A stretch of DNA of 64,000 nt from an uncultured Synergistaceae bacterium. GTDB taxonomy: Bacteria; Synergistota; Synergistia; Synergistales; 79-D21. Below the pieces are notes generated by a model. The model had not been told where the DNA came from, searched no databases, and saw only the letters and a program-made list of their open reading frames with translations. Each line of letters begins with the position of its first letter. Within the stretch, counting starts at the first letter, position 1. The position numbers and the translations under genes were made by a program. Shown one piece after another: positions 9,650 through 38,454 of the stretch. The stretch covers positions 368,470 to 432,469 of the forward strand of contig CAZFSR010000001.1 of the NCBI GenBank assembly GCA_964521575.1. The letters are read 5' to 3'.

Positions 9650-11206
9650 ATGCCGGAGGACTGGGTACGAATTTTCGACACGACCCTCAGGGACGGCGAA
9701 CAGTCCGCGGGGGTCAACCTGAACACCGCTGAAAAGATCCAGATCGCCCACCAGCTGGCGAAGATGAAGGTGGACGTCATCGAGGCGGGCTTCCCAGCCG
9801 CCTCGCCCGGCGACATGGAGGCCGTCTCCACGATCGCCCGGGAGGTCAAGGGGCCCATCATCGCGGGGCTGGCCCGGACCCGGGCCGGGGATATCGAGGC
9901 GGCCGCCGGGGCCGTGAAGCATGCGGCGAAACCCCGTATTCACACGTTCATCGCCACGAGCCCGATCCACATGGAGCACAAGCTGAAGATGACGCCCGGG
10001 GAGGTCCTCGAAGAGGTCCGGCGTGGCGTCACGCAGGCACGGTCTTTCGTTTCGGACGTGGAGTTCTCCGCCGAGGACGCCAGCCGCAGCGACGTCGATT
10101 TCCTGGTGAAGGTGTTTTCCCTGGCGATCGAGTGCGGGGCCACGACCCTGAACATCCCCGACACGGTGGGCTACGCGGCCCCCGAGGAGTTCGGCCGCTT
10201 CGTGAAGGCCATCCTCGACGGCGTGAAGGCCCCTCCGGGCGTGATCTGGTCGGTTCACTGCCACAACGACCTGGGCCTGGCGGTGGCGAACTCCCTTGAA
10301 GCGGTCAGGGCCGGCGTGCGGCAGGTCGAGTGCACGGTGAACGGCCTGGGCGAAAGGGCGGGCAACGCCTCCATGGAGGAGGTCGTCATGGCCCTGCGGA
10401 CGCGGCCCGATCGTTACGGGGTGGCTTCAAGGCTGGAGACGCCGCGGCTTTACGCCACGAGCAAGCTGGTGTCACGCCTGACGGGCGTCCTGGTGCCGCC
10501 GAACAAGGCCATCGTGGGGGAGAACGCCTTTGCCCACGAGGCGGGCATCCACCAGCACGGGATGCTCTGCAACAGGGCCACCTACGAGATCATGAAGCCC
10601 GAGGACGTGGGATCCCCCGGGACGGCGCTGGTCCTGGGCAAGCACTCGGGCCGCCACGCCTTCCTGAAGCGCCTGGAGTCCCTGGGCTTCGAGCTGGACG
10701 CTTACCAGAAGGAAAAGGCCTTCCTTGTCTTCAAGGAACTCTGCGACCGCAAGAAGACGGTTTCCGACGGCGACATCGAGGCCCTCGTCGTGGACGAGGT
10801 GCTGGTGGTGGTTCCCGAGCGCCGCTTCGAGCTGAAGGAGTATTCCGTCCAGGTTGCAGGCCGGGGACGGGCCTCCGCCTCCATCACCCTGAGGGACGGA
10901 ACGGGCGAGGTGACCGATGCGGCGGCCGGCAACGGCCCCGTCGATGCGGCCTACAGCGCCATCCGGCGCCTCGTGGGGATTTCCCCGGAGCTGTCCAGCT
11001 ACCGGATCCAGGCGACCAGCGAACGTTCTGACGCCATGGGAGAGGCCGTCATCACGCTGCGGCTGAACGGCCTGAAGGCGCAGGGGCGGGGGGCCAGCAC
11101 CGACGTCATCGAATCGAGCATCAAGGCCTACGTCAACGCCGTGAACAGGCTTTACGCCCTCGCGGCGGCAAAGGGGGAAACGCTCAATGGCGAGAACGCT
11201 GGCTGA
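9650..11206 (+). CDS. leuA: 2-isopropylmalate synthase
   Basis: 518 aa. [12 protein letters not shown] and [17 protein letters not shown] motifs, plus a C-terminal LeuA regulatory domain. Confidence 0.95.
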
Positions 11207-24219: not shown

Positions 24220-25716
24220 TCACGGGACGACCTGAATGCCCCTAAAGCGGCTCCACTCCAGCACGCTCTCCTCGTCGTTGTAGGGAACGGGACCCTGGGC
24301 GAGGATCATGGTCGTCTCCGGCCCCTTCCCCGCCAAAAGGACGACGTCGCCGGGACGTGCGGCATCGAGTGCGGCATGGACCGCATCCCGCCGGTCCAGG
24401 ATGACGGAATGGGACCGGATCCGCGGTCCGTCCAACCCTTCCTCGATCTGCAGAGCGATGCGCATGGGGTCTTCGCTTCGGGGATTGTCCATGGTGAGCA
24501 CCACATGGTCGGCATGGGTCGCCGCGACTCGGCCCATGAGAGGCCGGTTTTCGACCGTCCTCTCCCCTCCGAGTCCGAAAACCGCGTGGACGGAACCGCG
24601 ACAGTTTTCCCCGACGGCCTTGAGAGCTTTCTCGAGCCCGTCGGGGGTGTGGGCATAATCGATGAAGCAGGAAACGCCGTTTTCGAAACGGAAGCGCTGC
24701 AGCCTGCCGGGCACGGGGGGTGCGTTCTCGATGCCCAGCCGGATCGGTTCCGGTCCCATCCCAAGGATCATGCCGAGGGCCGCCGCGGCGAGAACGTTCG
24801 ACACATTGTGAAGGCCCACGAAGGGGCTTTTGACGCGCAATGAAGCGCCGGATCCCGGAAGGGTGAGGTCGAGATCCGTCCCCTCGAGGTCCGCGGCAAG
24901 GACCCGGCCCCTGACCCCCGGCCCCTCCCCGACCCCGTAGGGAACCGTCCTCTCCGGGAAGAGTCCCGCGAGCCGCCGGCCCCAGGGGTCGTCGACGTTG
25001 AAGCAGAAGCGCGCCTCAGGGCGCGGATACTCGGAGAAGAGCCTGAGCTTGGCCTGGAAATAGCTTTCCATGTCGCCGTGGAAATCCAAATGTTCCGGGG
25101 TCAGGTTCGTGAAAGCCAGGGCGTCGAAGCGGCACCCTTCTAGCCGGTGAAGGTCCAGCCCGTGGGAAGAGGCCTCCATGACGCAGGCGGGCACCTTGTT
25201 TGCGACCATTCGCGAAAGCCAGCGCTGGACCGATGGGCCGTCGGGAGTGGTTCGGACGCCGGGTTCCTCGGATTTGCCGTCGTCGTAGACGATGGTTCCC
25301 AGGAGCCCGCAGGGCACCCCCCCATGGCGAAGGATCGACCGGGTGATCCAGGCGGTGGTGCTTTTCCCGTTTGTACCGGTGACGGCGGCAAGGCGCAGCC
25401 GGCTCGCCGGGAAACCGTGAACCGCTGCGGCTGCGGTTGCGGCCGCCTTTCGGACGTCGTTCACGCAGATCACGGGCAAAGAGGTGTCCAGGGAACGCTC
25501 AGCGAGAAAGGCTGCGGTGCCTTTCTTTTCCGCCGTGCCCGCGAAGGCGTGCCCGTCGGACTTGAAGCCCCTGACGCAGCAGTAGAGGGCGCCGGCCTTG
25601 ACGTCGTCCGTTCGGGTGCAGACGTCCGTAACGGTGGGATCGTCAGAGGCAGACCGGGCGAAAGCCGGGTCAAGCCTGGCCGATTCAAGGATCTGGAAAA
25701 TTCGCGAAAGTTTCAT
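24220..25716 (-). CDS. murE: UDP-N-acetylmuramoyl-L-alanyl-D-glutamate--2,6-diaminopimelate ligase
   Basis: 498 aa. VTGTNGKSTT P-loop and the DNPRSEDP (DNPR) motif associated with meso-DAP-specific MurE. Confidence 0.9.
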   Translation of the reverse strand: MKLSRIFQILESARLDPAFARSASDDPTVTDVCTRTDDVKAGALYCCVRGFKSDGHAFAGTAEKKGTAAFLAERSLDTSLPVICVNDVRKAAATAAAAVHGFPASRLRLAAVTGTNGKSTTAWITRSILRHGGVPCGLLGTIVYDDGKSEEPGVRTTPDGPSVQRWLSRMVANKVPACVMEASSHGLDLHRLEGCRFDALAFTNLTPEHLDFHGDMESYFQAKLRLFSEYPRPEARFCFNVDDPWGRRLAGLFPERTVPYGVGEGPGVRGRVLAADLEGTDLDLTLPGSGASLRVKSPFVGLHNVSNVLAAAALGMILGMGPEPIRLGIENAPPVPGRLQRFRFENGVSCFIDYAHTPDGLEKALKAVGENCRGSVHAVFGLGGERTVENRPLMGRVAATHADHVVLTMDNPRSEDPMRIALQIEEGLDGPRIRSHSVILDRRDAVHAALDAARPGDVVLLAGKGPETTMILAQGPVPYNDEESVLEWSRFRGIQVVP

Positions 25717-25870
25717 CGAATGGGGTCCCCTCTTTCTGGAAACGCTCGATTGTCTATTCTAAAGCGTTTAAACGGCAGCGCAAGAGTTCATCAGGGACGA
25801 GCGGTATTGCGGAGGGGAACCCTTTTGCTGTTTAATGGCGGAAATCTGATGTTTCTGCGGAGGCGCACCG

Positions 25871-26542
25871 ATGGAAGAATTCACGGACAACCTGAAGTCC
25901 TTGCGGGAAAAGGTGTACCAATACCTCAGGAAAGGCCTGAACGAAGGGCGCCTCAGGCAAGGCGCCTTCCTCAACCTGAACGCCATCAGCGCGGAGCTGG
26001 GCATGAGCCGCACGCCCCTTAGGGACGCCCTTTTCCAGCTCGAGGCCGAAGGGTACGTGACGATCTTCCCGAGGCGCGGAGTCATGGTCAACCGGCTCGA
26101 CCTGGAGAAGATCCGCAATATCTACGAGATCAGCGGGGCCCTGGAAAGCACGGTGATTGCCCATTCCGGGCGCAAGCTCACCGATGCGGACCTCGCTGCG
26201 ATGGAAGAACTGAACGAGCAAATGCGGGTGGCAGTTGAAACACAGGACATCGACGGCTACTACGAAAAGAACACGGCTTTCCACAACATCTATCTGAACC
26301 TCTCCCAGAACGGGGACCTGATCCGGACGATCCACACGATGCGCGAACGGCTCTACGATTTCCCCAGGAGCAAGGCGTTCATCAAGGATTGGGAACTTGC
26401 CGCGATCGAGGAACACGAAGAGCTCATCCGCCGGCTCAGGGCAAAGGACTTCAACGGGGCTGCGGAACACCTTCGGGACGTTCATTGGTCCTTCGAGGTC
26501 CAGGAACGGTATGCGCGGCTGTACTACTTCGGGCAGGAATGA
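25871..26542 (+). CDS. GntR-family transcriptional regulator (FadR/FCD subfamily)
   Basis: 223 aa. N-terminal winged HTH (LNAISAELGMSRTPLRDALFQLEAEGYV) and a helical FCD-like C-terminal domain. Confidence 0.85.
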   Translation: MEEFTDNLKSLREKVYQYLRKGLNEGRLRQGAFLNLNAISAELGMSRTPLRDALFQLEAEGYVTIFPRRGVMVNRLDLEKIRNIYEISGALESTVIAHSGRKLTDADLAAMEELNEQMRVAVETQDIDGYYEKNTAFHNIYLNLSQNGDLIRTIHTMRERLYDFPRSKAFIKDWELAAIEEHEELIRRLRAKDFNGAAEHLRDVHWSFEVQERYARLYYFGQE

Positions 26543-26569
26543 CGGTGCCTTCCTCCACAGGCATGGGCC

Positions 26570-26602
26570 GGCCGGGCGGGATTTTTCCCGCCCGGCCGTT
26601 TT
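26570..26602 (+). terminator. Intrinsic terminator after the GntR gene
   Basis: GGCCGGGCGGG (26570-26580), loop ATTTTT, CCCGCCCGGCC (26587-26597), GTTTT. Confidence 0.7.
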
Positions 26603-26612
26603 GTGCGCAAGA

Positions 26613-26642
26613 TTGACATTGCCAGACTCTTCCAGCTAATAT
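26613..26642 (+). promoter_or_regulatory. Strong sigma70-like promoter of the DUF3798-like/M24 operon
   Basis: TTGACA (26613-26618), 18-nt spacer, TAATAT (26637-26642), followed by an AT-rich 5-prime UTR and a GAGGGGGG RBS. Confidence 0.55.
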
Positions 26643-26685
26643 ATCAGAGATATTTTTATCATATTTTTAGAGGGGGGTTTGAAGC

Positions 26686-27879
26686 ATGCGGAAGTCTTGG
26701 ATTGTCCTGCTGGCAGGGTTGGCGCTGTTCGCCCTGATGGCGGGGACGGCGATGGCGGAAGCGCCGTTCCATATCGGCGTCGTGACCCTGACCGTTTCAC
26801 AGGCGGAAGACACTTACCGCGGTGCCGAACGGCTGACCAAGGAATACGGGGACGTGGCCAAGGGCGGGTACATCAAGCACATCACGCTTCCCGACAGCTT
26901 CATGTCGGAGATGGAAACGAGCATCAGCCAGATCGCCGGTCTCGCCGACGACCCGAAAATGAAGGTCATCGTCGTGGACGACGCGGTTCCGGGAACGACC
27001 GAGGGGTTCCGGCGGGTCAAGGAAAAGCGCCCCGACATTCTCTGCTTCGCCGGTGAACCGCAGGAAGACCCGAACGTCATCACCTCGGTGGCCGACCTCG
27101 CCATCGGAGTGGACAACGTGCTCCGCGGCTACCTCATCATCAACACCGCGAAGAAGATGGGCGCGGACACTTTCGTCCACATCTCCTTCCCCCGCCACAT
27201 GAGCTACGAGCTTCTTTCAAGGCGGCGCAACATCATGGAGCAGGCCTGCAAGGACCTGGGCATGAAATTCGCCTTCGAGACCGCTCCCGACCCCACCAGC
27301 GACGTCGGCGTGGCGGGTGCCCAGCAGTACATCCTTGAAAAGGTTCCGGCCTGGGTCCAGAAATACGGCAAGAAAGCGGCCTTCTTCTGCACGAACGACG
27401 CGCAGACGGAACCCCTTCTCCGGCAAGTCGCGAAATACGGCGCTTTCTTCGTGGAGCCCGACCTCCCCTCCCCGCTGATGGGTTATCCCGGAGCCTTCGG
27501 GATCGATCTTTCCAAGGAGAAGGGCAACTGGCCGGCCATCCTGAAGAAGGTCGAGCAGGTCGTCATCAAGGCCGGCGGCAAGGGCCGCATGGGCACCTGG
27601 GCCTATTCCTACGGCTACGCCACCACCGCGACGCTGGGCGAGTACGGCAAGCGCATCGTCGAGAAGAAGGCAAAGCTCGGGAACATGAAGGACCTGATGG
27701 TTGCCTACGAGAAATACACCCCGGGTGCCAAGTGGAACGGCAGCAATTACGTCGACATGGGTACCGGCGTCAAGAAGAAGAACTTCATCCTCGTCTACCA
27801 GGACACCTACGTGTTCGGTAAGGGGTACATGGGCGCCACCAGCGTCAAGGTTCCCGAGAAATACCTGAAAATCAAGTAG
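26686..27879 (+). CDS. Secreted periplasmic-binding-protein-like protein (DUF3798-like)
   Basis: 397 aa. Signal peptide MRKSWIVLLAGLALFALMAGTAMAEA. The body resembles DUF3798/type I PBP-fold lipoproteins; the family call is from memory. Confidence 0.7.
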   Translation: MRKSWIVLLAGLALFALMAGTAMAEAPFHIGVVTLTVSQAEDTYRGAERLTKEYGDVAKGGYIKHITLPDSFMSEMETSISQIAGLADDPKMKVIVVDDAVPGTTEGFRRVKEKRPDILCFAGEPQEDPNVITSVADLAIGVDNVLRGYLIINTAKKMGADTFVHISFPRHMSYELLSRRRNIMEQACKDLGMKFAFETAPDPTSDVGVAGAQQYILEKVPAWVQKYGKKAAFFCTNDAQTEPLLRQVAKYGAFFVEPDLPSPLMGYPGAFGIDLSKEKGNWPAILKKVEQVVIKAGGKGRMGTWAYSYGYATTATLGEYGKRIVEKKAKLGNMKDLMVAYEKYTPGAKWNGSNYVDMGTGVKKKNFILVYQDTYVFGKGYMGATSVKVPEKYLKIK

Positions 27880-27982
27880 GAACGGTTGGACGGGAAAGGA
27901 AATGGAAGGGACCGGGGGATTTGCTTTCCCCCGGTTTTTTTCGGGAGCCTGTCTCCCGCGCAAGAAGAAGGAGGAATCACCC

Positions 27983-29080
27983 TTGCTGAAGGATCACCTG
28001 CAAAACCTCACGGAGCGCCTCCGGAAGGGGAATCTCGACGCGATTCTCCTGGGTCCGTCGCCTGACCTGGAATACCTCGCCGGGCTTAGCCTCTTTGCCG
28101 ACGAGCGTTTCAAGGGGCTCGTCGTCCTGGCCGACGGTCGGATGTTCTCCATCGTGCCGAAGCTCTACCGGGAGCAGATGGAGTCCGTACTCGGACCGGA
28201 ATGTCCCGCCTGCGTCTGGGACGACGCAGAGGGTTTCCTGGAGAAGGTGACGGCCGCATGGAAGGGTTTTGGCCTTGCCGGCAAAACCGTGGCCGTGAAC
28301 GACGGAATTCGTGCCGTGGACTTGATCGACCTGGAGCGGGGCGTTCCCGGGACGAGTTTCGTCAACGGGCACCACGTGGTGGAAGCCATGCGGCTGATCA
28401 AGTCACCGGGGGAGATGGATATCTTGCGAAAGGCGGCCCGCATCGCCGACGAGGCTTTCGGGGAGCTGGTGGCGTTCATCCGCCCTGGGGTCCGCGAAGG
28501 CGAAGTGGCCAAGCGCCTCGAGGAGCTGCTTTTCGAGAAGGGGGCAGACGGCCTGTCCTTCCCCACGATCGTCGCTTCCGGCCCGAACGGCTCCAACCCC
28601 CACTACATGGGAACGAGCCGCGTGCTCTGCGAGGGCGACCCCGTGGTCATCGACTTCGGGTGCACTTACCGGGGCTATTGCTCCGACACGACCCGCACCG
28701 TTTTCGTCGGGAAGGCTTCCGAGGAGGACCGGGAGATCTACCGGATCGTCCTGGAGGCGAACCTTGCCGGGGAGGCGGCCGTGCGGGAAGGGGCGACCGC
28801 CCAGGACGTGGACAGGGCGGCGAGGGCGGTCATCGAGAAAGCGGGGTACGGTGAGTATTTCATCAACCGGACCGGGCACGGGATCGGAGTGGCGGTTCAC
28901 GAAGCCCCCTACATCATGGAGGGGAACCGGCAGGAACTGAAAGAAGGGATGGCCTTCAGCGTGGAGCCCGGCATCTACATCCCGGGGCGCCTGGGCATCC
29001 GGATCGAGGACATCGTCCTGGTGACGGACAAGGGAGGGGAACCCCTGAGCGCTTTTACCAAGGACCTCACGATCGTCTAA
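27983..29080 (+). CDS. M24-family Xaa-Pro dipeptidase/aminopeptidase
   Basis: 365 aa from TTG 27983, 6 nt after AAGGAGGA. Pita-bread metal ligand regions DFGCTYRGYCSDTTRT, GHGIGVAVHE and VEPGIY...IRIEDIV. Confidence 0.85.
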   Translation: MLKDHLQNLTERLRKGNLDAILLGPSPDLEYLAGLSLFADERFKGLVVLADGRMFSIVPKLYREQMESVLGPECPACVWDDAEGFLEKVTAAWKGFGLAGKTVAVNDGIRAVDLIDLERGVPGTSFVNGHHVVEAMRLIKSPGEMDILRKAARIADEAFGELVAFIRPGVREGEVAKRLEELLFEKGADGLSFPTIVASGPNGSNPHYMGTSRVLCEGDPVVIDFGCTYRGYCSDTTRTVFVGKASEEDREIYRIVLEANLAGEAAVREGATAQDVDRAARAVIEKAGYGEYFINRTGHGIGVAVHEAPYIMEGNRQELKEGMAFSVEPGIYIPGRLGIRIEDIVLVTDKGGEPLSAFTKDLTIV

Positions 29081-29104
29081 ACCCTTAGGGAACAGGAAAG
29101 ATCA

Positions 29105-29138
29105 GCCGGGGGCGCGAGCAGCGCCCCCGGCTTTTTTT
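29105..29138 (+). terminator. Intrinsic terminator after the M24 peptidase gene
   Basis: GCCGGGGGCGC (29105-29115), loop GAGCA, GCGCCCCCGGC (29121-29131), T7. Confidence 0.8.
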
Positions 29139-30082
29139 CAGGCCTTCGGCACGAACAGGTCCGAAGCCCCGTGCGGGGAGAGGCGGACGTCCGGTTCGTT
29201 CGTCGCGACATGGTGAATGACCCATTCGGCCCACTTGACCTTCTTTTCCATCAGCCGGACGTGTTCCTCCTCCGAGTTGAAGGGGTTGTAGAACCCGGCG
29301 GCGGGGGCCGGCTCGAACTTGAAGTAGCAGGGGCCGTAGATCTTCGCCACCTCCGGAGCGTCGTAGAGGCGGTTGGCGCCGCCGTAGGAATCGAAGGTCC
29401 AGATGTAAAAGTCGATGGGGATGTCGACGACCTTCCGGATTGCGGCCATCTGGGGCAGGGTCAGGTCCGAGACGGGGTTGAAGGAACTGGCCCCGAGGTC
29501 CTGGGCGAGCTTGGCCCCGGCTGCGGAGGAAACGCCGGCCCAGACCGAGAGCTTGATGGCGATGTCCTTCGGGAAGTTTCCCTGCTCCTGCATGGTCTTC
29601 ACGAGGGAAAGGACGCCCCGGTCCACGAGCATGAAGCCCCGGAAACCGATCTCGTACATGCGGAACATGTCGGCGATCACCTTGCGGATTTCGTCGGATC
29701 CCCGGTGGTTCAAGCCGCCGCAGCGCTGTCCGTCCGCGGTCACGAACTGCCTCCCGATGTCCCAGGCATTCCGGGGCCCCGGGATGGCAATGACCTCCAT
29801 CTTGTCCTCGGCGGCCATCTGGGCGAAGTCCTTCAGTTCCGCGTCATCGTAAAGGGTGCCGCCCTGGCAGAAGGACACGAGGCGATGGATGGGGATATTC
29901 CTCCTGCGGCGTTCGGCGATGAGGGCTTCAAGCACCTTAGGTCCTTCGACACCGGACATCTCGATGCGGTAGTGCCCTCCATCGGGGAAGCTTTTTCCGC
30001 TTGCGGGCCGATCATAGAGATCGCGACCGGGGATTCCCGCCTGTTCCATGAATTGGGAAACCTTCTCCAGGCTGACTGGCAT
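29138..30082 (-). CDS. Conserved-looking hypothetical protein, function unknown
   Basis: 314 aa with non-repetitive composition and an RBS AAGGAGGGAAAGA before the ATG. No motif I can assign. The alternating pattern could be a TIM-barrel-like fold, but that is speculation. Confidence 0.6.
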   Translation of the reverse strand: MPVSLEKVSQFMEQAGIPGRDLYDRPASGKSFPDGGHYRIEMSGVEGPKVLEALIAERRRRNIPIHRLVSFCQGGTLYDDAELKDFAQMAAEDKMEVIAIPGPRNAWDIGRQFVTADGQRCGGLNHRGSDEIRKVIADMFRMYEIGFRGFMLVDRGVLSLVKTMQEQGNFPKDIAIKLSVWAGVSSAAGAKLAQDLGASSFNPVSDLTLPQMAAIRKVVDIPIDFYIWTFDSYGGANRLYDAPEVAKIYGPCYFKFEPAPAAGFYNPFNSEEEHVRLMEKKVKWAEWVIHHVATNEPDVRLSPHGASDLFVPKA

Positions 30083-30177
30083 GTCTTTCCCTCCTTGTCC
30101 CGGTAGCCAAAAGAGCGAGTTGAAAAGGCATGAAAATTAGTAGCATGGGCTTCCCGGGGTGTCAATCGCGCGAAGGC

Positions 30178-30207
30178 TTGACAGGGCCGGAAGGTCCGTG
30201 GTAAATT
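30178..30207 (+). promoter_or_regulatory. Candidate promoter of the trp leader
   Basis: TTGACA (30178-30183), 18-nt spacer, TAAATT (30202-30207). The predicted start site falls at or just before ATG 30215. A divergent TTGACA (30165-30160) with TACTAA could serve the gene at 29138..30082. Confidence 0.45.
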
Positions 30208-30214
30208 CCTCGCC

Positions 30215-30283
30215 ATGATGAATCGATATAGCGACAACATGACCGCAACGAACGTGAAGGCACTTTGGTGGTGGGGGTCCTAG
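30215..30283 (+). CDS. Trp-codon leader peptide MMNRYSDNMTATNVKALWWWGS (or 14 aa from ATG 30239)
   Basis: Three consecutive TGG codons at 30266-30274 and stop TAG at 30281-30283. A terminator follows 30 nt downstream. Not in the ORF track because it is under 60 aa. Confidence 0.75.
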   Translation: MMNRYSDNMTATNVKALWWWGS

Positions 30284-30312
30284 GCCCCCGCCCACCTTGG
30301 CATGTGCTGAGA

Positions 30313-30349
30313 GGGCCGCGGGGAAATCAATACCCGCGGCCCCTTTTTT
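30313..30349 (+). terminator. Intrinsic terminator 1 (attenuator) upstream of trpB
   Basis: GGGCCGCGGG (30313-30322), 10-nt loop, CCCGCGGCCC (30333-30342), C, T6 (30344-30349). Confidence 0.8.
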
Positions 30350-30361
30350 ACCCGGAAACCG

Positions 30362-30392
30362 GCGGGGGCCCGAAGGGCCTCCCGCTATTTTT
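30362..30392 (+). terminator. Second terminator-like hairpin upstream of trpB
   Basis: GCGGGGGCCC GAA GGGCCTCCCGC (one mismatch) followed by TATTTTT. Lies 35 nt before the trpB ATG. Confidence 0.5.
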
Positions 30393-30426
30393 GTTCCCAA
30401 AACCCATTTTCGAGGAGGAAGATGAG

Positions 30427-31683
30427 ATGAGGCAGACGAGCGCAACACAGGCGAGCACGAGAGGGTTTTACGGCGAATACGGGGGAAGGTTCGTGCCGGA
30501 GGCGATCGGAACCCTGCTGGACGAACTCGAGGCGGCTTTTGACGCGGCCATGGCCGACGGGGCCTTTGTCGCGGAGATGGACCGCCTGCTGGGGGAATAC
30601 GTGGGACGCCCCTCCCCCATCACGGAGTGCGCCAACCTGTCCAGGGAGCTGGGGGGAGGCCGTCTCTTCCTGAAGAGGGAAGACCTGAACCATACCGGGG
30701 CGCACAAGATCAACAACGCCCTGGGGCAGGCTCTCCTGGCGAAGCGCATGGGCAAGACCCGGCTGATCGCCGAAACGGGGGCGGGGATGCACGGAACCGC
30801 CAGTGCCACCGCGGCGGCCCTGATGGGGATGGAATGCACGGTCTACATGGGAGCCGTGGACGTGGCGAGACAGGCGCCGAACGTTTCCCGCATGAAGGCC
30901 CTGGGGGCCAGGGTCGTTGCGGTGCATGAAGGACAGGCGACCCTCAAGGAGGCCGTCGACGCGGCCCTGGCCGCCTGGATCGAGGATACCGGGGCCTTCT
31001 ACCTTCTGGGTTCCGTCGTCGGGCCATCGCCCTACCCGGAGATCGTCAGGACTTTTCAGTCGGTCATCGGCCGGGAGGCCCGGCAGCAGTTCCTTGAAAG
31101 GGAAGGCCGCTTGCCCGAGGAAGTGGCGGCCTGCGTGGGAGGTGGTAGCAACGCCATGGGCCTCTTTTCGGGTTTCCTGGATGACCCGTCGGTTTTGATC
31201 ACCGGCGTCGAACCCGGCGGGAAAGGGGTCGAGAAGGGACTGGGAGCCCATGCCGCCACGTTATGCGCGGGAACGAGGGGCATCGTTCACGGCTTCCGTA
31301 CGGTGGTCCTCTCTGATGCTTCGGGGGACCCGGCGCCTGTCCACTCGGTCGCGGCCGGGCTGGATTATCCCGGAGTGGGCCCCGAACACGCCCACCTGAG
31401 GGACACGGGGCGCGCCCGTTACGTGGCGGTGACCGATGACGAGGCCCTCGATGCCTTTGGAAGGATGTGCCGTCTTGAAGGGATTATCCCGGCCCTGGAG
31501 AGTTCCCATGCACTGGCCTACGCGATGAAGCGCCTTCCGGGGATGGCCCGTGACCAAGCTATCCTGGTCAACCTGTCCGGGCGCGGCGACAAGGACCTCG
31601 ACACGGTGTTTTCCGAGAAGGAGAAAAAAGCCGCCGCCGGGAGCCTCAAGGGAATCCAGTCGAGGGGGTTGTTTTACGTCTAG
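30427..31683 (+). CDS. trpB: Tryptophan synthase beta chain (orphan; no trpA in window)
   Basis: 418 aa from the ATG 7 nt after GAGGAGGAAG. FYGEYGGRFVPE, the HTGAHKINN PLP-lysine motif and GGGSNAMG. The track start at 30265 would read through the attenuator. Confidence 0.9.
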   Translation: MRQTSATQASTRGFYGEYGGRFVPEAIGTLLDELEAAFDAAMADGAFVAEMDRLLGEYVGRPSPITECANLSRELGGGRLFLKREDLNHTGAHKINNALGQALLAKRMGKTRLIAETGAGMHGTASATAAALMGMECTVYMGAVDVARQAPNVSRMKALGARVVAVHEGQATLKEAVDAALAAWIEDTGAFYLLGSVVGPSPYPEIVRTFQSVIGREARQQFLEREGRLPEEVAACVGGGSNAMGLFSGFLDDPSVLITGVEPGGKGVEKGLGAHAATLCAGTRGIVHGFRTVVLSDASGDPAPVHSVAAGLDYPGVGPEHAHLRDTGRARYVAVTDDEALDAFGRMCRLEGIIPALESSHALAYAMKRLPGMARDQAILVNLSGRGDKDLDTVFSEKEKKAAAGSLKGIQSRGLFYV

Positions 31684-32459
31684 GAGCGGATTTCCCTGGA
31701 TTTCCGGGCGATAAGGGCCGCCCCGACGGCTCCGGCATACGGGGCATCCGGGGAGGTGACCACGGGGCGTCCAAGGCGCTTCTCCAGGAGCCGGACTAGG
31801 TTGCGGCTCCTGGAGACCCCTCCCGTGAAGGCGACGGGCCCGGATCCTCCCAGCTTTTGAAGCATCGCGCAGGCACGGCCCGCGATGGAATCGAGAAGTC
31901 CCAGTGCCAGCGAGTGCTTGTCTACCCCTCGGGCCAGGAGACTGACCACCTCGGATTCTGCGAAGACCGTGCACATGCTGGAAATGGGCTGAGGGGGCAA
32001 ATCTTCCGGCAGCCGGCTGAAATCGTCCAGTTCCATTTCCAGCAAGGCAGCCATGACCTGGAGGAACCGTCCCGTTCCTGCGGCGCATTTGTCGTTCATC
32101 AAAAAATCGTTGACGGTCCCTCCCCTACCGAGGGAGATGGCCTTGCTGTCCTGCCCTCCGATGTCCAGGACGGTTTCCGACCCGGGGTACAGGAAAGCGG
32201 AACCGGCTGCATGACAGGTGATTTCGGTCACCGGCGTGCCGATCCCCTTGAGGCTTTTCCGCCCGTATCCCGTGAGCACGATCCCGGCTGCTTCCGATGG
32301 GTCTATCCTGTTACGGGCCAGTATTTCCCTGAGGGCTTGTTCGCCCGTTTCCCGAGGGTTCCAGCCCGAGGGCACCATGAGCCGGTCCACGACGGATTCG
32401 TCGAAGAGGACGATCTTGATGCCCATGGAGCCCAGGTCGACGCCGACGCTCAGGCTCAC
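31680..32459 (-). CDS. HgdC/BcrAD-type ATP-dependent activase (CoA-substrate-specific enzyme activase)
   Basis: 259 aa from GTG 32459 (GTGA overlap with the DUF3343 stop). ASKHA motifs VGVDLGSMGIKIV, DIGGQDSKAI and NDKCAAGTGRFL (cluster-bridging Cys). The 94 P/R-rich residues upstream in the track ORF are rejected. Confidence 0.85.
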   Translation of the reverse strand: MSLSVGVDLGSMGIKIVLFDESVVDRLMVPSGWNPRETGEQALREILARNRIDPSEAAGIVLTGYGRKSLKGIGTPVTEITCHAAGSAFLYPGSETVLDIGGQDSKAISLGRGGTVNDFLMNDKCAAGTGRFLQVMAALLEMELDDFSRLPEDLPPQPISSMCTVFAESEVVSLLARGVDKHSLALGLLDSIAGRACAMLQKLGGSGPVAFTGGVSRSRNLVRLLEKRLGRPVVTSPDAPYAGAVGAALIARKSREIRS

Positions 32460-32677
32460 GGCTGCTGCACCACCAGTTCGACGGGGATGGCAAGACTTGC
32501 TGCAGCCTCCCTGACGACTTCGGACTGTACGGCGTCGAAGCGCAGGGCGATTCCGCAACTGTCCGCCAGGTGGCGAGGGGTGGGGCAGATTTCGTCCCGC
32601 AGCCCCAGGACTCTCAGGTGCCGGTGAAGGATCATCCCGTCGGTCGCAGTCTTGAAGAGAGCGTACGCAAAGGTCAA
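32456..32677 (-). CDS. DUF3343-like small protein (putative Se/S carrier-like fold)
   Basis: 73 aa with a TTG start overlapping the upstream stop. Pattern ...ILHRHLRVLGLRDEICPTPRHLADSCGIALRF matches my memory of DUF3343 (xPxPRxxSSxCGxxxxF). Confidence 0.65.
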   Translation of the reverse strand: MTFAYALFKTATDGMILHRHLRVLGLRDEICPTPRHLADSCGIALRFDAVQSEVVREAAASLAIPVELVVQQP

Positions 32678-33222
32678 GTCCGTTTTCCTTTCGCAAGCCT
32701 TTCCCGGGTTTCTTCCCAGCAGGCGGTTTCGGGGTCCCCATTGTCCGCGTCGGTCATGGCGAGGTCAAGGCCCCGGGCGGAAAGTCCCTGGCGAAGGACC
32801 TCGATGAAAACGCCAGGTCCCTCCCCTCGCCGGGCCTCCTGGCTGCCGCGGGCGGTTCCGCCGCGACAGCCGAGGCAGGTCTCGCGGACACCGCAACTGG
32901 GACTTCCCTTGACGCCGACGATTCCCAGGATCTCGACGCCGTTTTCAAGCGCATCCTCGACCTGGTCGATAAACGGTTCGAGGATGGAGGCACAGTGCCG
33001 CCGGAAAGCCGGTGTGTCGTACTGCTCTGAAGTCATGCCCCACCGTTTCAGGCCCAGGAACGTACTTTCCGGGCATGGAAGCTGAATGATCCCGAGTCCG
33101 TCCCGGGCTATGGGAAGGAGCAGGTTTTCCAGGGCTCCCGTATAGGCGGCTTCGCCTTCCACGATCGCGCTGGCGTTCAGGATGCAGTGACAGAGAACGA
33201 CTATCCGGCGGCTGCGCTTCAT
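32674..33222 (-). CDS. Cys-rich protein, TudS(DUF523)-related putative desulfidase (CD3072-like; from memory)
   Basis: 182 aa with RBS AGGAGG. Conserved-looking Cys positions: VVLCHCILN, QLPCPE, GSPSCGVRETCLGC. Confidence 0.55.
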   Translation of the reverse strand: MKRSRRIVVLCHCILNASAIVEGEAAYTGALENLLLPIARDGLGIIQLPCPESTFLGLKRWGMTSEQYDTPAFRRHCASILEPFIDQVEDALENGVEILGIVGVKGSPSCGVRETCLGCRGGTARGSQEARRGEGPGVFIEVLRQGLSARGLDLAMTDADNGDPETACWEETRERLAKGKRT

Positions 33223-33232
33223 GGATGTCCTC

Positions 33233-33811
33233 CTATTGACCGGTTGTTCCCTTTAGAAACGGGTTGCCGCCCTTCGCCAGTGTCTGCGGAGGGAGCTTGG
33301 GCAGGATCAGCGCCACGAGGACCGAACAGGCGACCTTGTCCACCAGGTTCCCGGTGATGCGGGGGATGAAAGCGGAGGTGAAGATCGAGTTGCCGCTCTT
33401 CAAGAGCCAGAGGAAAAGCAGGTCCGTGCCGCCCCCCGTGAGGCCGCCGTAAATCCAGACGGCGATGGGCGTGCCGATCAAAGGGGCGATGACGGCCAGG
33501 GCCAGGCCCGTGGCAATGGCGACCGGGAGGGTAAAGCGGAACTTTCGGGCGACAAGGCCGGCAACCAGCCCGATCGCCATGTTGACCAGGGCGAAGGGGA
33601 TGTCCCGCGGGTTGGTCAGGATTCCCTGGACGACGTTCGTGACGAGGCCGATGAGGACGCCGTGGAAAGGCCCGAGCAGGACCGCGCCGAAAATCGTCCC
33701 GAGGGTGTCCAGGAAGATAAGGGGGATGTGAAGCATCTGGACGAATGTCCCGAGGGCCAGGTTGACAACCACGCAGATGGCGCTGAAGGTCAGCGCAAAG
33801 TTCTTGTTCAT
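33233..33811 (-). CDS. ECF-transporter S-component-like membrane protein (CD3073-like; from memory)
   Basis: 192 aa with about 6 TM helices and an RBS AAGGAG. No EcfA/EcfT genes in the window. Confidence 0.65.
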   Translation of the reverse strand: MNKNFALTFSAICVVVNLALGTFVQMLHIPLIFLDTLGTIFGAVLLGPFHGVLIGLVTNVVQGILTNPRDIPFALVNMAIGLVAGLVARKFRFTLPVAIATGLALAVIAPLIGTPIAVWIYGGLTGGGTDLLFLWLLKSGNSIFTSAFIPRITGNLVDKVACSVLVALILPKLPPQTLAKGGNPFLKGTTGQ

Positions 33812-33844
33812 CTGTTTTCTCCTTTTTCTTCTCTCCGGCCTGCT

Positions 33845-35125
33845 CTAGCGTCCCAGGCTTTCGACGAAAGCTTCGATCCGGGTGCGAAGCTGTCCCTCGT
33901 CGCCGGAAGCATAGTCGGTCTCGAGAGGCAGGAAGGGAATGCCCTCGTCCTGGAGGCGCTTTCTCAATTTTTCGTTTTCCACCTGGTACGTGGTGCAGAA
34001 GCTCAGGTTCAGGCCCACGACCCCGTCCACGCCATATTCCCGGACCAGCCTGGCCACGTCGTCTGCGCGTCCCTCGTTCGGGGAGAAGCAGGCGCAGTGG
34101 ATCCGGTCGAAATAGCGGTGCGCGATCGCGTCGACCAGATCTTCGACCGTGGAGGCACCTGACGTGTCCACTCGGCTTTCGAAGTACCGTGTGCCGGTGC
34201 AGTTTTCCTCGACGACCACGGCGGCGCCGCTGGTTTCGATGATTTTGTGGACCTTCCAGTTGGGGACAACGATGGGGGTTCCGGTAACCAGAAGACGCTT
34301 CGTTCCCTCCGGGAAGATGGCCTTTCCGGTTTTGATTCTTTCTTCGCATTCCTCCGCCAGGGCGGTCGCCTGTGAAATGAAGCGATCGGCGTCGTCGTAA
34401 AACGCGACCTGGCTGGCCAGGAGCATGTCCAGCCCGCTGATGGGGACTTTCGGGGCCTTTCGGGTTTCATACAATCGCTGAAGGATGGCACGCTTCCGAT
34501 CCACCGTCTCGATGGCGGAAAGCAGCCGGTCGAAAGTGAGGCGATTGCCGGTGACTTCTTCCAGTTTTGTCACGAGATCGGTCATGGATTTCCTGAAAAG
34601 GGCAAAGCCGGCTTCACTCTTGGTGTTGGGCAGGTCCATCACGTAGGTGGGAGCCATGTCACCCAGGACTTCCCAGGCCTTCTTCTTGCCGTCGCAGGTG
34701 TTTTCCCCGACGACCAGGTCGACGGACTGGAAATAGGGGCAGGTTCTCGAGACCTTTGCCCCGATACCCGCCTTGATCAGGGGGCAGAGGTTCCGGGGAA
34801 GGACCTGTTCCCCCGCGGGCACCCAGAACTCGGAGCCGGCACACAGGCCGACCATGATCCCGTCCAGGGCCATGACGATCTCCTCGGGAACGTAGATGCA
34901 GAAACTCCCGACGATTTTTCCGCCGCGGGCCTTGTGGTCCAGCAGTTCCTGGATCCGGAGGCCGTGGACCTCGGCGATCACCATGTTGAAGTAATCCATT
35001 CCCAGGGGACGGTCCGGCTGGGTCAGGAAGACCTGTTCAAACGCGGGGGGCAGAGCGGCGCAAAGCTGGTCGTGGGTGGCCAGGTCCATGCCCAGTCCTT
35101 CCCACATCTTGTGATAATCGGCCAT
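33845..35125 (-). CDS. 2-hydroxyacyl-CoA dehydratase / benzoyl-CoA reductase family protein, single-subunit (double-cubane-cluster-protein-like)
   Basis: 426 aa from the ATG 8 nt after GAGGAGG. Multiple conserved-type Cys (GSFCIYVPEE, GLCAGSE, NLCPLIKAG, ENTCDGKKK, EENCTGTRY, HCACFSPN). Encoded in one operon with an HgdC-type activase. Confidence 0.8.
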   Translation of the reverse strand: MADYHKMWEGLGMDLATHDQLCAALPPAFEQVFLTQPDRPLGMDYFNMVIAEVHGLRIQELLDHKARGGKIVGSFCIYVPEEIVMALDGIMVGLCAGSEFWVPAGEQVLPRNLCPLIKAGIGAKVSRTCPYFQSVDLVVGENTCDGKKKAWEVLGDMAPTYVMDLPNTKSEAGFALFRKSMTDLVTKLEEVTGNRLTFDRLLSAIETVDRKRAILQRLYETRKAPKVPISGLDMLLASQVAFYDDADRFISQATALAEECEERIKTGKAIFPEGTKRLLVTGTPIVVPNWKVHKIIETSGAAVVVEENCTGTRYFESRVDTSGASTVEDLVDAIAHRYFDRIHCACFSPNEGRADDVARLVREYGVDGVVGLNLSFCTTYQVENEKLRKRLQDEGIPFLPLETDYASGDEGQLRTRIEAFVESLGR

Positions 35126-35427
35126 AAGGCAATCCTCCTCTGAAAAATCGGCAACAGGCAAGAGTTCCCGGCGGGAGTGCCGGAACGCCTGCCGTCATGT
35201 CTGAAAGCCGTTTTGCCGTAGGAGTGCCCTGGGGGGAGGGGTTGTGTCAGAAGGTACCGGAAAAGCAGGCTGGTCGATCCGGTCCTTTGGCGCCGTCCTC
35301 GCTGCCCTGGGCGATCCCCGACTGCGGTGCAGACCCTGCACCGCCCGTTCTGCAGTCTCAGTGGCGCTCCTTCCGGATCATCTCCAACCCTCCTTTCGCG
35401 GAAAAGGCTTTACTGACAAGGATGATA
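35126..35427 (-). promoter_or_regulatory. Promoter plus ~290-nt structured leader; candidate riboswitch (possibly cobalamin-like, uncertain)
   Basis: TTGCCC (35450-35445), 17-nt spacer, TATCAT (35427-35422). The leader contains AAAGGAGGGTTGGAGATGATCCGGAAGGAGCGCCACTGAGA (GCCACTG box), nested GC helices, ACCAGCCTGC and a long 3-prime hairpin followed by GATTTTT before the RBS. Confidence 0.4.
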
Positions 35428-35482
35428 AGGTATTAACCGAAAACGGGCAACGGAACAAGGCTTTAGGGAGCCGTTTCCCCCT

Positions 35483-36370
35483 TCAGGCCGTTGCCTTCCA
35501 GTGTTTGAAGCCCTTGCCGAAAACCTCCGTGGCGTCGGTCTGGATCAGGAAGGCGTTCGGGTCGTGCTCGGCCAGGAAGAGTTTCAGGTCGGCCACCTGG
35601 CGGGGCAGGAGAAGGGACATGACGATCGGGCGTTCCCTGCCCGTGTAGGCTCCCTCGCTGTGGATCACCGAAGCCCCGCGGCGGAGTTCCTCCAGGATGT
35701 ACCGCCTCACCTCGAGGTGCTTGTCGGAGATGATGAAGACCTGCACGCAGCGATCAAAGGATCGGAGCGCGCCGTCCAGGAAGGTGGAACCGGCGAACAG
35801 CATCGCCACCGCGTAAAGCGTGTTCTCGATCCCGACGATGAAGATCGCGGGGATTAGGACGAAGGAGTTGATCCAGAAGGTGAACTTTCCGATCTCCATG
35901 CCGGTCTTCCTGCGGACGATGGCGGCGAGGATGTCCGTCCCCCCCATGGACCCGCCCGCGTTGAAGACGAGTGCCCCGCTGATCCCGTTGATCGCGGCGG
36001 CCGTAAGGACGGCAAGAAGCTTGTCCTGCAGGGGCGGGGGAGGAAGCATCCTGAACAGGTCGAGCGAGCCCGAGAAGAGAAGGACCGAATAAGCGGTGAG
36101 GTACAGGAAGCGCCGCGGCAGGACCCTCCAGCCGAGGGCGAAAAGGCCGATGTTGAAGACCAGGTTGACGAGGCCGACAGGGAGCCCCAGGGTGTAGTTC
36201 AGCAGGATGGAAATGCCGGTGAACCCGGTACTGGGAAACCGGTAGGGCAGGACGAGCAACGAGATGGCCAGGGCGTAGAGAACGGTTCCGACCGTCACTC
36301 TCAGGACCCCCGGCGCCTCCCTTTTCACGGTTCTCCTGGTCAGAAGGGTCAAGCGGGTGAGAAGGCGCAT
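35483..36370 (-). CDS. YitT-family membrane protein (with DUF2179-like C-terminal domain)
   Basis: 295 aa. N-terminal 5-6 TM region with GGTDIL-type motif (GGSMGGTDILAAIV) and a soluble C-terminal domain. Confidence 0.8.
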   Translation of the reverse strand: MRLLTRLTLLTRRTVKREAPGVLRVTVGTVLYALAISLLVLPYRFPSTGFTGISILLNYTLGLPVGLVNLVFNIGLFALGWRVLPRRFLYLTAYSVLLFSGSLDLFRMLPPPPLQDKLLAVLTAAAINGISGALVFNAGGSMGGTDILAAIVRRKTGMEIGKFTFWINSFVLIPAIFIVGIENTLYAVAMLFAGSTFLDGALRSFDRCVQVFIISDKHLEVRRYILEELRRGASVIHSEGAYTGRERPIVMSLLLPRQVADLKLFLAEHDPNAFLIQTDATEVFGKGFKHWKATA

Positions 36371-36534
36371 CGGGAAACCTCCATCGCGCAGTTTTCTGGA
36401 TGCCGTACCCGTAGTTTAAGGCAAATTTGCCGTTTTGGGCCGCCGGCTTCAAGAAGGACCGTGACCAATATTGACCAAAGGTGTAAAATACCTCACCGGG
36501 AAACCGAATACAAGAACCGGGAGGTCGATTCACC

Positions 36535-38454
36535 TTGAGCGAAGGCAGGACGAAGGAACACCTTTCTTTCCAGGCGGAGGCGAAGCAGGTTCTGGACCTG
36601 ATGATCCACGCCGTCTACTCGAACAAGGATGTTTTCCTGCGGGAACTCGTCAGCAACGCCTCGGACGCGCTGGACAAACTTCGCCTGGAAGCCCTGACGA
36701 ACGACGCGTTACGGGATGCGGTCCAGGCTCCCGCGATCACGATCGAGAGGGACGTGCAAAGCCGGACCCTTTCCGTCTCCGACAACGGGATCGGCATGAC
36801 GAAGGAAGAGATGGTCCGGTTTCTCGGGACCATCGCCAAGTCCGGGACGAAGGAGTTTTTGCGGATCCTGAAGGAATCCGGTCGCGGGAACGATCCGGAA
36901 GCCCTCATCGGGCAGTTCGGTGTCGGGTTTTACGCTTCTTTCATGGTGGCGGACCGGGTGACGGTCACCAGCCGGAAGGCGGGAACGGACGAGGCCTGGA
37001 AGTGGGAATCGGAGGGCGACGGCGGTTATTCCCTGGAACCGGCCGAAAGGGCGGGCTCGGGGACGACGGTGACGCTGTCCCTCCGCCCCGCCGATGAGGA
37101 GGACGGGCTTCGGGATTACACGGACGAATGGGTCCTGAAGGAGATTGTCAGGAAATACTCGGATTTCGTGGCCTATCCCATCCGGTTCGGTGAAGAGACC
37201 CTCAACAGCATGAAGGCGATCTGGGCCCGGCCGAAATCGGAGGTCAAGGATGCCGATTACGACGAGTTCTACCGGCATGTCAGCCACGACTGGAACCCTC
37301 CCCTTAAGCGGATCGCCTGGAAGGCGGAGGGGACGGTCACCTTCGACGCGCTCCTCTTCATTCCCTCCAAGGCTCCTCTTGACCTCTTCATCCGCGACGT
37401 GGACCGAGGGCTGCAGCTCTACGTCAAGCGGGTGTTCATCAAGAGTGACTGCCGCGAGCTGCTGCCCGACTACCTCCGTTTCATCCGGGGCGTGGTGGAC
37501 AGCGAGGACCTGTCGCTCAACATGTCGAGGGAAATTCTCCAGCAGAACCGGCAGATGGAGCTGATCCAGGCGGGCCTGACCCGGCGGATCCTGTCCACCC
37601 TCGAGGAGATGCGTTCCAGTGACCCGGAAAGCTACCGGACCTTCTGGAGGGAGTTCGGGCGGGTGCTGAAGGAGGGGCTCTTCCTGGACGGGAAGAACCG
37701 CGAGAAGCTTCTCGAACTCTGCCTTTTCAAGTCCTCCATCTCCGGGGAGGAGTGGGTCACCCTGGAGGAGGCGGCCTCGCGCCTTGCCGACGGCAGGAAG
37801 GAGATCTTCTATCTCGTCGGCGAGGACCGGTCGGTGCTGGAACGGTCTCCCATCCTGGAGGCTTTCCGCTCTCGCGGGATCGAAGTCCTGTTCATGACGG
37901 ACCCGGTCGACGAAATCTGGCTCCAGGCCGTGGACGGATTCAGGGAATTCGGCCTGAGGGATGCGGGCAAGGGCGACCTGGATCTCGAAAGTGAAGCGGA
38001 GAAGGAAAAGGCCAGGGAAGTTCGTGATGCCGCCGAGAAGAGCCTGAGGCCGCTGATGGACTACCTGAAGAACCGTCTTTCCGAGCGGGTGCGGGAGGTC
38101 CGCCTATCGGGGCGCCTGACGGATTCCCCGGCATGCCTGGTCCAGGACGAAAGGGACCCGTCGCCCCAGTTTGCCCGTGTCCTGGCCTCCCTGGGTCGTG
38201 ACGTTCCGCATTCCAGGCCGGTTCTGGAACTCAACCCCGGGCATCCCATCATCAGGGGCATGTCCGACCTGTTGGAGAAAGCCCCGGCAAGCCCTGCCCT
38301 GGAGGCCTACGCAGAACTTCTCTGCGGGATGGCGGCACTGGCGGAAGGCAGCCTGCCGCAAGATGCCCCCGGTCTCTCCAGGAGGCTGGCCGAACTTCTC
38401 GAGGAGAAGGTGGGCTCGGCGAGAGATTCCAGGGTGGAAGTCTTGCCAGAATAA
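36535..38454 (+). CDS. htpG: Molecular chaperone HtpG (Hsp90)
   Basis: 639 aa with a TTG start. [37 protein letters not shown] and [18 protein letters not shown] ATPase motifs. Confidence 0.95.

Follow-up and report, generated by a model that had tools for sequence, protein, structure and literature searches.

A 64-kb stretch of DNA from an uncultured Synergistaceae bacterium (the window) carries a gene for the tryptophan synthase beta subunit, trpB, preceded by a leader with a tryptophan-rich mini-open reading frame (mini-ORF) and two terminator-like hairpins in series. Searches with TrpB place the window in the Synergistales, with top matches 79 to 90% identical in metagenome-assembled genomes (MAGs) of Synergistaceae and Aminobacteriaceae. 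Coordinates of the element come from direct reading of positions 29800 to 30700, and the features are listed below with the pairing strands of the leader numbered 1 to 6 from 5' to 3'.

30178-30207, plus strand: sigma-70-type promoter read from the sequence, TTGACA at 30178-30183, an 18-nt spacer, and TAAATT at 30202-30207.
30215-30283, plus strand: leader ORF of 22 codons from the ORF list, MMNRYSDNMTATNVKALWWWGS and stop, ending KALWWWGS.
30265-30296, plus strand: hairpin 1:2, GGUGGUGGGGGUCC with GGCCCCCGCCCACC, folding at -22.8 to -24.2 kcal/mol.
30266-30274, plus strand: three consecutive Trp codons (TGG) read from the sequence, the putative sensing site inside region 1.
30286-30323, plus strand: antiterminator 2:3 from folding, CCCCGCCC, CCCCGC(CC), at 30286-30293 with GG at 30314-30315 and GCGGGG at 30318-30323.
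30313-30349, plus strand: terminator T1 (3:4) from folding, GGGCCGCGGGG at 30313-30323 with CCCGCGGCCCC at 30333-30343, then T6 at 30344-30349.
30361-30392, plus strand: terminator T2 (5:6) from folding, GGCGGGGGCCC at 30361-30371, GAA, GGGCCTCCCGC at 30375-30385, then TATTTTT ending at 30392.
30412-30418, plus strand: trpB Shine-Dalgarno sequence GAGGAGG.
30427-31683, plus strand: monocistronic trpB with ATG at 30427, 418 amino acids, TIGR00263 at 568 bits against a cutoff of 392.

The promoter agrees with the consensus at 10 of 12 positions and has an extended -10 element, with TG two bases 5' of the -10 box. It is the sole promoter-like site on the plus strand across positions 29000 to 33000, and because that scan found no such site between T2 and trpB, induction requires passing T2. 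The leader ORF has a second in-frame ATG at 30239 and ends in TAG (30281-30283). Within hairpin 1:2, the Trp codons occupy the 5' arm, the stop codon is in the loop, and region 2 (30283-30296) forms the 3' arm. T1 has a folding energy of -27 kcal/mol (z = -4.9), which none of 200 shuffled sequences equaled, and T2 folds at -22.6 kcal/mol (z = -2.7). The initial annotation of this DNA had proposed the promoter, the WWW-containing ORF with either start, T1 with its T6 tract, the second hairpin with TATTTTT ahead of the trpB ribosome binding site, and a classic 1:2, 2:3, and 3:4 arrangement; each is present as described, all three alternative structures fold, and no promoter was found downstream of 30392 that would bypass them.

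The gene upstream of trpB (29138-30082, U32-like) is divergent and the gene downstream (31680-32741, acyl coenzyme A [acyl-CoA] dehydratase activase) is convergent; trpB is therefore monocistronic, and both terminators can act on the leader transcript only. The product is of the TrpB1 type, with the catalytic lysine of the HTGAHK motif aligned with Escherichia coli K87, and its best Protein Data Bank (PDB) matches are all TrpB chains, led by the ancestral enzyme LBCA-TrpB (5ey5). No trpA, trpC, trpD, trpE, trpF, or trpG was detected in the 64-kb window by tblastx with a Pfam-verified complete trpEGDCFBA locus (L018) or by tblastn with TrpA, in agreement with the initial description of trpB as an orphan.

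Searching genome collections, metagenome collections, and a protein database with TrpB gave 23 related, Synergistales-type trpB loci in 12 lineages, with TrpB sequences 60 to 90% identical. At all 23 loci trpB stands alone, with no other trp gene found and with unrelated, lineage-specific neighbors. At all 23, a mini-ORF that begins with ATG and contains a run of Trp codons (WW, WWW, or WWWW) lies upstream of trpB, ending 123 to 261 nt ahead of its ATG and accompanied by a terminator. The stop codon follows the Trp run by 1 to 3 codons at 22 of 23 loci (11 of 12 lineages), the remaining locus (L176) having its stop 8 codons past a WW. At the same 22 loci the stop falls in or beside the loop of hairpin 1:2, and across related loci the terminator follows the leader stop at a distance of 56 to 67 nt. 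The in-frame ATG, the Trp run, and the stop are kept, but the peptides otherwise diverge in sequence and length; for example, other Synergistales leader peptides read MKSALSLTTKKYFYWWWL, MRKRAQSFDRNFVMINVWWWWP, and MTRSFANNSMLFWWWWT, each followed by a stop.

A composite detector that combined a W-run mini-ORF with a terminator was run over both strands of about 323 kb of Synergistales sequence. It returned one match per locus, always upstream of trpB. In the window itself, TGGTGGTGG occurs three times against 0.4 expected. The other two runs, at 10803-10811 (plus strand) and 50816-50824 (minus strand), lie inside long ORFs, and because they are not in a mini-ORF and have no terminator after them, they are not attenuators.

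Folding and partner exchange both bear on whether the three helices are conserved as pairings. When the first strand is left out, 2:3 is the minimum-energy fold of 30283-30330 (-23.2 kcal/mol). The T1 helix is paired in 98.3% of the cells of its alignment (alignment A1), with three pairs altered on both sides. Duplex energies were compared in nine lineage representatives, with each strand paired either with the partner from its own lineage or with partners from other lineages. Own partners outdid swapped ones in both 1:2 (p = 5e-5) and 2:3 (p = 0.0014). Column-wise covariation of 1:2 on a MAFFT alignment had been tried and set aside; 61% of cells were paired, which is the shuffle level, and the fixed-column count is uninformative because the register of the helix shifts between lineages. 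Per-locus folding and the partner-swap tests took its place.

Because this layout persists at 23 loci despite differing leaders and flanks, and because own partners beat swapped partners, the element is very probably a ribosome-mediated leader-peptide attenuator controlling a stand-alone trpB, and it is predicted to sense charged tRNA-Trp. Leader-peptide Trp attenuators are textbook regulators in Proteobacteria. No Trp attenuator has been reported for Synergistetes in the searchable literature, no RNA-level control of Trp genes in Synergistota was found there or in Rfam, and no Rfam model captures the element; literature searches on Trp auxotrophy in Synergistetes likewise gave nothing usable. 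The proposed attenuator would extend leader-peptide attenuation to Synergistota, which are amino-acid-fermenting anaerobes of digesters and guts.

Transcription would begin at about 30214-30215. In the window the leader ATG lies 7 nt past the -10 box, and a gap of 6 to 7 nt without a Shine-Dalgarno sequence is common to seven loci (the window, L081, L161, L163, L165, L167, and L168); L081, L161, and L163 also share the window's promoter at identical spacing. More distant lineages have a 5' untranslated region (UTR) of 26 to 46 nt with a Shine-Dalgarno-like sequence ahead of the leader ATG. Judged from spacing, the leader is probably translated as a leaderless mRNA, which is plausible for the sub-clade of the window. 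This supports the early suggestion that the leader may lack a 5' UTR, and the leaderless trpL RNA of Sinorhizobium meliloti, rnTrpL, provides a precedent (PMC6614838).

The position of the ribosome is expected to decide the fate of the transcript. Ribosomes protect about 12 to 14 nt of mRNA 3' of the first base of the A site. Taking that footprint length as an assumption, a ribosome stalled at any of the three Trp codons is predicted to extend as far as about 30278-30286, so that 30286-30293 would stay available for pairing; one that has reached the stop codon is predicted to extend to about 30293-30295 and to mask region 2. This geometry, derived from coordinates, fits the classical attenuation model. 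When Trp is plentiful, the ribosome would reach TAG and cover region 2, T1 would form, and transcription would stop at 30344-30349. With no ribosome loaded, 1:2 would pair and T1 would form here too; in either case, polymerase leaking past T1 would run into T2. When charged tRNA-Trp is scarce, the ribosome would stall at WWW and hold region 1, and the free region 2 would pair with region 3 and block T1.

Several energetic results weigh against this assignment. The window's 2:3 duplex (-14.3 kcal/mol) does not beat its shuffles (mean, -18.0 kcal/mol) and is not significant at this single locus, and single-locus shuffle statistics are weak in this G+C-rich leader for both 2:3 and a second proposed pairing, 4:5, described below. 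In the fully transcribed leader T1 is favored over 2:3 (-34.1 versus -23.2 kcal/mol), and once T1 and T2 are both transcribed, equilibrium folding always favors them. Antitermination must therefore be kinetic, as it is in E. coli and in classical attenuators generally.

An alternative in which the mini-ORF is not translated was weighed against these data. The leader could instead be an RNA switch that binds a protein, a tRNA, or a ligand (a T-box, a TRAP-type leader, or a riboswitch), with TGGTGGTGG kept merely as a G-rich helix strand; UGGUGGUGG is indeed one of the two strands in helix 1:2. This is very improbable. A switch of this kind does not account for an in-frame ATG and a stop 1 to 3 codons past the W run at 22 of 23 loci in peptides that otherwise vary, nor for the Shine-Dalgarno-like sequence before the leader ATG in lineages with a 5' UTR. 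In the window, every Rfam family stayed below its gathering score, and the same scan of nine outgroup loci returned only RNase P and one tRNA. There was no Rfam match to the T-box (RF00230), and a search for a simple core motif, TGG-N-ACC, found none in the leader. A TRAP leader would be expected to carry about 9 to 11 (G/U)AG triplets spaced 2 to 3 nt apart; the 219-nt leader has seven (G/T)AG triplets, all scattered, and nowhere do five or more occur in a run. The hairpins are separated by a short spacer, which lacks conservation.

Permissive Rfam scanning of 30080-30460 was more informative about relatives. The only resemblances, both within 30251-30348, were to RcsR1 (RF02552) at 23.9 bits (E = 0.008; gathering score, 60) and to BjrC80 (RF02354) at 28.4 bits (E = 0.001; gathering score, 80); Trp_leader (RF00513) was unlisted even at E <= 10. 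RcsR1 is the trpL attenuator RNA of S. meliloti, since renamed rnTrpL (PMC6614838), and for this reason we regard the weak RcsR1 and BjrC80 matches as meaningful rather than random. The S. meliloti RNA has a leaderless trpL and three stem-loops (PMC6614838), and the match aligns the UGGUGGUGG hairpin and the terminator of the window. It differs in having a single terminator, in controlling trpE(G), and in having a documented function in trans.

That function raises the question of whether the leader transcript that ends at a terminator (length, about 135 or 180 nt) could itself be the main product, a trans-acting small RNA like rnTrpL to which control of trpB is secondary. The similarity to a trans-acting RNA (PMC6614838) and a strong promoter followed by efficient-looking terminators are what such an RNA would show. 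We consider this unlikely: the element is always directly upstream of trpB in changing genomic contexts, the sequence examined contains no other trp operon as a target, and a role in trans would add to the role in cis rather than replace it.

The proposed ribosome-mediated attenuator resembles the E. coli and Salmonella trpL leader (RF00513), which also has tandem Trp codons in a short leader ORF, mutually exclusive 1:2/3:4 and 2:3 pairings, a stop codon near region 2, and an intrinsic terminator ahead of the structural gene. The window departs from trpL in its number of Trp codons (three), its probably leaderless ORF, and its second terminator; it matches trpL neither in sequence nor by covariance model, and the target is a lone trpB instead of trpEDCBA. 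Leader-peptide Trp attenuators have also been predicted in actinobacteria, including upstream of operons in which trpB comes first (PMC1262725). These attenuators, in Corynebacterium and Streptomyces, share double or triple UGG leaders and GC-rich terminators with the window, and trpB is sometimes the first gene, examples including trpB1EDGC and trpB2A of Corynebacterium diphtheriae (PMC1262725). They differ in belonging to another phylum, in having a single terminator, and in controlling multigene trp operons that include trpA. The core mechanism is ordinary, and what merits further attention is the arrangement of tandem terminators, together with the clade of orphan TrpBs.

A second hairpin follows T1 by 12 to 22 nt in 9 of the 12 lineages, with energies of -15.7 to -26.5 kcal/mol and usually a tract of U5 to U8. 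The hairpin is retained among lineages although its sequence turns over completely. Among 64 background terminator-like sites in the same loci, no tandem pair was found, and no small ORF was found in the spacer running from T1 through T2 to trpB. The leader peptide is the only recognizable sensor for both terminators, and the conserved T2 offers a simple natural test case for one sensor gating two terminators.

How polymerase could pass T2 is suggested by two further pairings. In the first (4:5), the end of the T1 3' arm together with the U tract complements the base of the T2 5' arm in every lineage, at -12.6 to -20.7 kcal/mol; in the window, positions 30365-30370 of T2 complement 30338-30343 in the 3' arm of T1. 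The strands in four lineages are as follows.

Window: T1 3' arm end GGCCCC; T2 5' arm base GGGGCC.
L003: T1 3' arm end UCCCUCU; T2 5' arm base AGAGGGA.
L086: T1 3' arm end CUUUUGUUUU; T2 5' arm base AAAACGAAAG.
L171: T1 3' arm end GCCCCUUU; T2 5' arm base GGAGGGGC.

For 4:5, own partners outdid those of swapped lineages in the same nine representatives (p = 0.013). In the second pairing (2:5), the T2 5' arm at 30361-30370 perfectly complements 10 nt of region 2 (30283-30292), forming a duplex of -26.8 kcal/mol (z = -3.0). With region 1 masked in the window, T1 plus 2:5 is isoenergetic with T1 plus T2 (-58.3 kcal/mol) and, as long as arm 6 has yet to be transcribed, is the fold of lowest energy. 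As a general device against T2, however, 2:5 was rejected, being strong only in the lineage of the window (p = 0.18 across lineages).

These pairings suggest a relay in which a strand left unpaired upon antitermination captures arm 5, so that T2 would form only if T1 had formed. With the switch off, the leader would hold 1:2, 3:4, and 5:6. With it on, 2:3 would free arm 4, and arm 4 would capture arm 5, the T2 5' arm, before its 3' arm is made, by 4:5 pairing in all lineages. In a variant, region 2 would pass from region 3 to region 5, using the 10-bp perfect match in the lineage of the window. Full-length trpB mRNA would then be produced. If the relay is true, T2 stops only the leak-through past a correctly formed T1, and repression is multiplied with the induced level not lowered.

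Conditional control of T2 remains a doubtful proposition, somewhat short of an even chance. The serious rival, to which we would give tentative credence at best, is classical attenuation at T1 only, with T2 a moderately efficient terminator that works unconditionally, as a back-up or insulator, needs no dedicated antiterminator, and scales both states down. Five observations count against the relay and for this simpler arrangement. One terminator suffices in three lineages (L082, L168, and L176), which lack T2, and the T2 hairpin of L171 has a poor U tract. The per-locus statistics for 4:5 are weak, the window's duplex being at -15.8 kcal/mol against -15.6 kcal/mol for shuffles, and comparison with unrelated terminators giving rank p values of 0.06 to 0.44 per locus. 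The 2:5 pairing is confined to one lineage, and equilibrium ensembles separate the two ribosome states poorly, differences in arm-5 pairing between "starved" and "replete" masks being small and inconsistent. An unconditional T2, on the other hand, would widen the regulatory range no more than a weaker promoter would, yet 9 of 12 lineages keep it close to T1, and the short distance between the two stays fixed while T2 changes in sequence. By the energies and U tracts given above, T2 hairpins equal bona fide terminators in strength, the 4:5 complementarity is higher within lineages than between them, and these loci contain no other tandem terminators.

T2 may have a different use in one lineage. 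In L171/L175 (5987-6000; Aminirod/Aminithiophilus, CP074691.1 and CP072943.1), the U tract of the second hairpin is poor, and the 3' arm of this hairpin, CCCCUCCUU, complements GAGGAGG, the Shine-Dalgarno sequence of trpB, which lies about 15 nt farther downstream. In this lineage T2 may now act at the level of translation. As a general explanation, a T2 3' arm acting as an anti-Shine-Dalgarno element was rejected, since CCUCC occurs in the window and L171 but is not general.

Serial terminators in one 5' leader are known from tandem riboswitches and tandem T-boxes, in which each terminator has its own sensor; the window differs in having one leader peptide for both. The gammaproteobacterial rimP leader also carries two terminators in series (PMC2965389) and is the nearest case to the one proposed here, no precedent having been found for one leader peptide with two conserved terminators.

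The enzyme under this control also departs from the usual pattern. TrpA was found by tblastn beside trpB at 131 of 177 loci overall and at none of the 23 Synergistales loci, for which 1 to 6 kb of sequence beside trpB was covered. In a TrpB alignment from all loci, the set with an adjacent trpA was compared with the Synergistales set, and 19 positions at least 85% conserved in the former were changed in the latter. These include beta-20, 168, 175, and 288, which have been given as contacts to the alpha subunit (PMC8187860, PMC9083551); the overlap with alpha contacts is 4 of 11 (hypergeometric p = 0.001). For example, beta-R175 is present in 130 of 131 TrpBs with an adjacent trpA and is A, T, E, N, M, Q, S, or G in the Synergistales set. 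Positions 20, 22, 161, 168, 171, 172, 176, 288, 293, and 294 are changed or relaxed in the clade, with substitutions including D168E, Q293E/D, and I294P. The catalytic residues K87, D305, K167, and G162 are invariant in both sets. With no adjacent trpA and with alpha-contact residues lost, the 23 Synergistales loci thus lack the marks of a canonical alpha2-beta2 enzyme.

The loss of alpha-interface residues supports a partner-less, TrpA-independent step, induced when Trp runs short, in which TrpB would convert indole and serine to tryptophan, and so lends weight to the initial proposal of an indole-plus-serine salvage step. A starvation-induced trpB with no trpA nearby and eroded alpha contacts points to indole scavenging in indole-rich anaerobic communities. 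A partial parallel is trpRBA of Chlamydia trachomatis, where the pathway is incomplete, Trp is made from exogenous indole, and transcription through to trpB depends on Trp (PMC7755916, PMC6504234). Chlamydia differs in keeping trpA as an allosteric partner (PMC8376405) and in using the protein repressors TrpR and YtgR, with no WWW leader or terminators.

The 32 TrpBs without R175, comprising the 23 Synergistales sequences and nine from MAG or metagenome loci (L002, L004, L010, L013, L017, L032, L055, L083, and L084), form an exclusive clade in a neighbor-joining tree, and no trpA was found in the 1 to 6 kb beside trpB at any of the 32 loci. Six of the nine outgroup loci carry MAG labels of Desulfovibrio, Burkholderiales, Pseudomonadota, Bacteriovoracaceae, Elusimicrobiaceae, and Propionibacteriaceae; L083 and L084 are unlabeled metagenome contigs. 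Several outgroup members of the clade have W-leaders with a single terminator, for example, MKNAFGNTLSLRNWWWHW, MNTHETLCNTIQWWWPC, and MNARNISISFLWWRHGKHAAGCVPA, each followed by a stop. Their W-rich leader ORFs are located as follows.

L013, 5765-5821: W-rich leader ORF.
L032, 2223-2276: W-rich leader ORF.
L004, 5847-5924: W-rich leader ORF.
L084, 1667-1744: W-rich leader ORF.
L017, 5240-5308: W-rich leader ORF.

Endings among the outgroup leaders include NWWWHW and QWWWPC, each directly before the stop, and LWWRH a little ahead of it. L004, L013, L032, and L084 have one terminator each, mutually similar, of the form GCCGCGGCAGUG...ACUGACCGCGGC plus a U run; in L017 no clear terminator hairpin was observed after the leader. 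Because W-leaders occur in the orphan-TrpB clade beyond the Synergistales, the module of leader plus trpB seems to travel between phyla.

Judged by its sequences, the clade seems to represent a hitherto undescribed family of TrpB1 enzymes that are naturally stand-alone. A single natural case was reported in 2025 (PMC11917138). That enzyme, plTrpB of Pelodictyon luteolum, and the reconstructed ancestor LBCA-TrpB are of the TrpB1 type and active without TrpA (PMC11917138; PDB 5ey5). In P. luteolum, however, trpA lies nine genes away, whereas the clade of the window has no trpA within 1 to 6 kb and has lost beta-R175 and other alpha contacts. The clade therefore points to a ready-made family of stand-alone TrpB1 enzymes of the kind sought for biocatalysis. 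The full combination, a relay of two serial terminators under one leader peptide together with a cross-phylum clade of TrpA-independent TrpB1 enzymes turning environmental indole into tryptophan, is a possibility that we advance tentatively.

Other features lie around the locus. Convergent with trpB, the acyl-CoA dehydratase activase (BcrAD_BadFG/TIGR00241) is found in a minus-strand region at 31680-35161, and in L163 (2994-5363) an HGD-D dehydratase subunit is present as well, also convergent with trpB; activase and HGD-D genes are of the 2-hydroxyacyl-CoA dehydratase type used in amino acid fermentation. The counterpart ORFs in the window lie at 33219-34349 and 33845-35161 and, as far as they were scanned, yielded no Pfam match. 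Between the convergent M24 peptidase (plus strand) and U32-like (minus strand) genes, a perfect 12-bp GC-rich palindromic hairpin at 29104-29132 is followed by T7 on the plus strand and is terminator-like on both strands. Window positions 24220-38454 are syntenic with MAG contigs JARDUI010000437.1 and ERZ27257417 k141_70475 (L161 and L163), the shared genes being Mur ligase, DUF3798, M24 peptidase, and U32-like, followed by YitT and HSP90. The block from the U32-like gene to YitT varies among the three, and its constant part is trpB with its leader.

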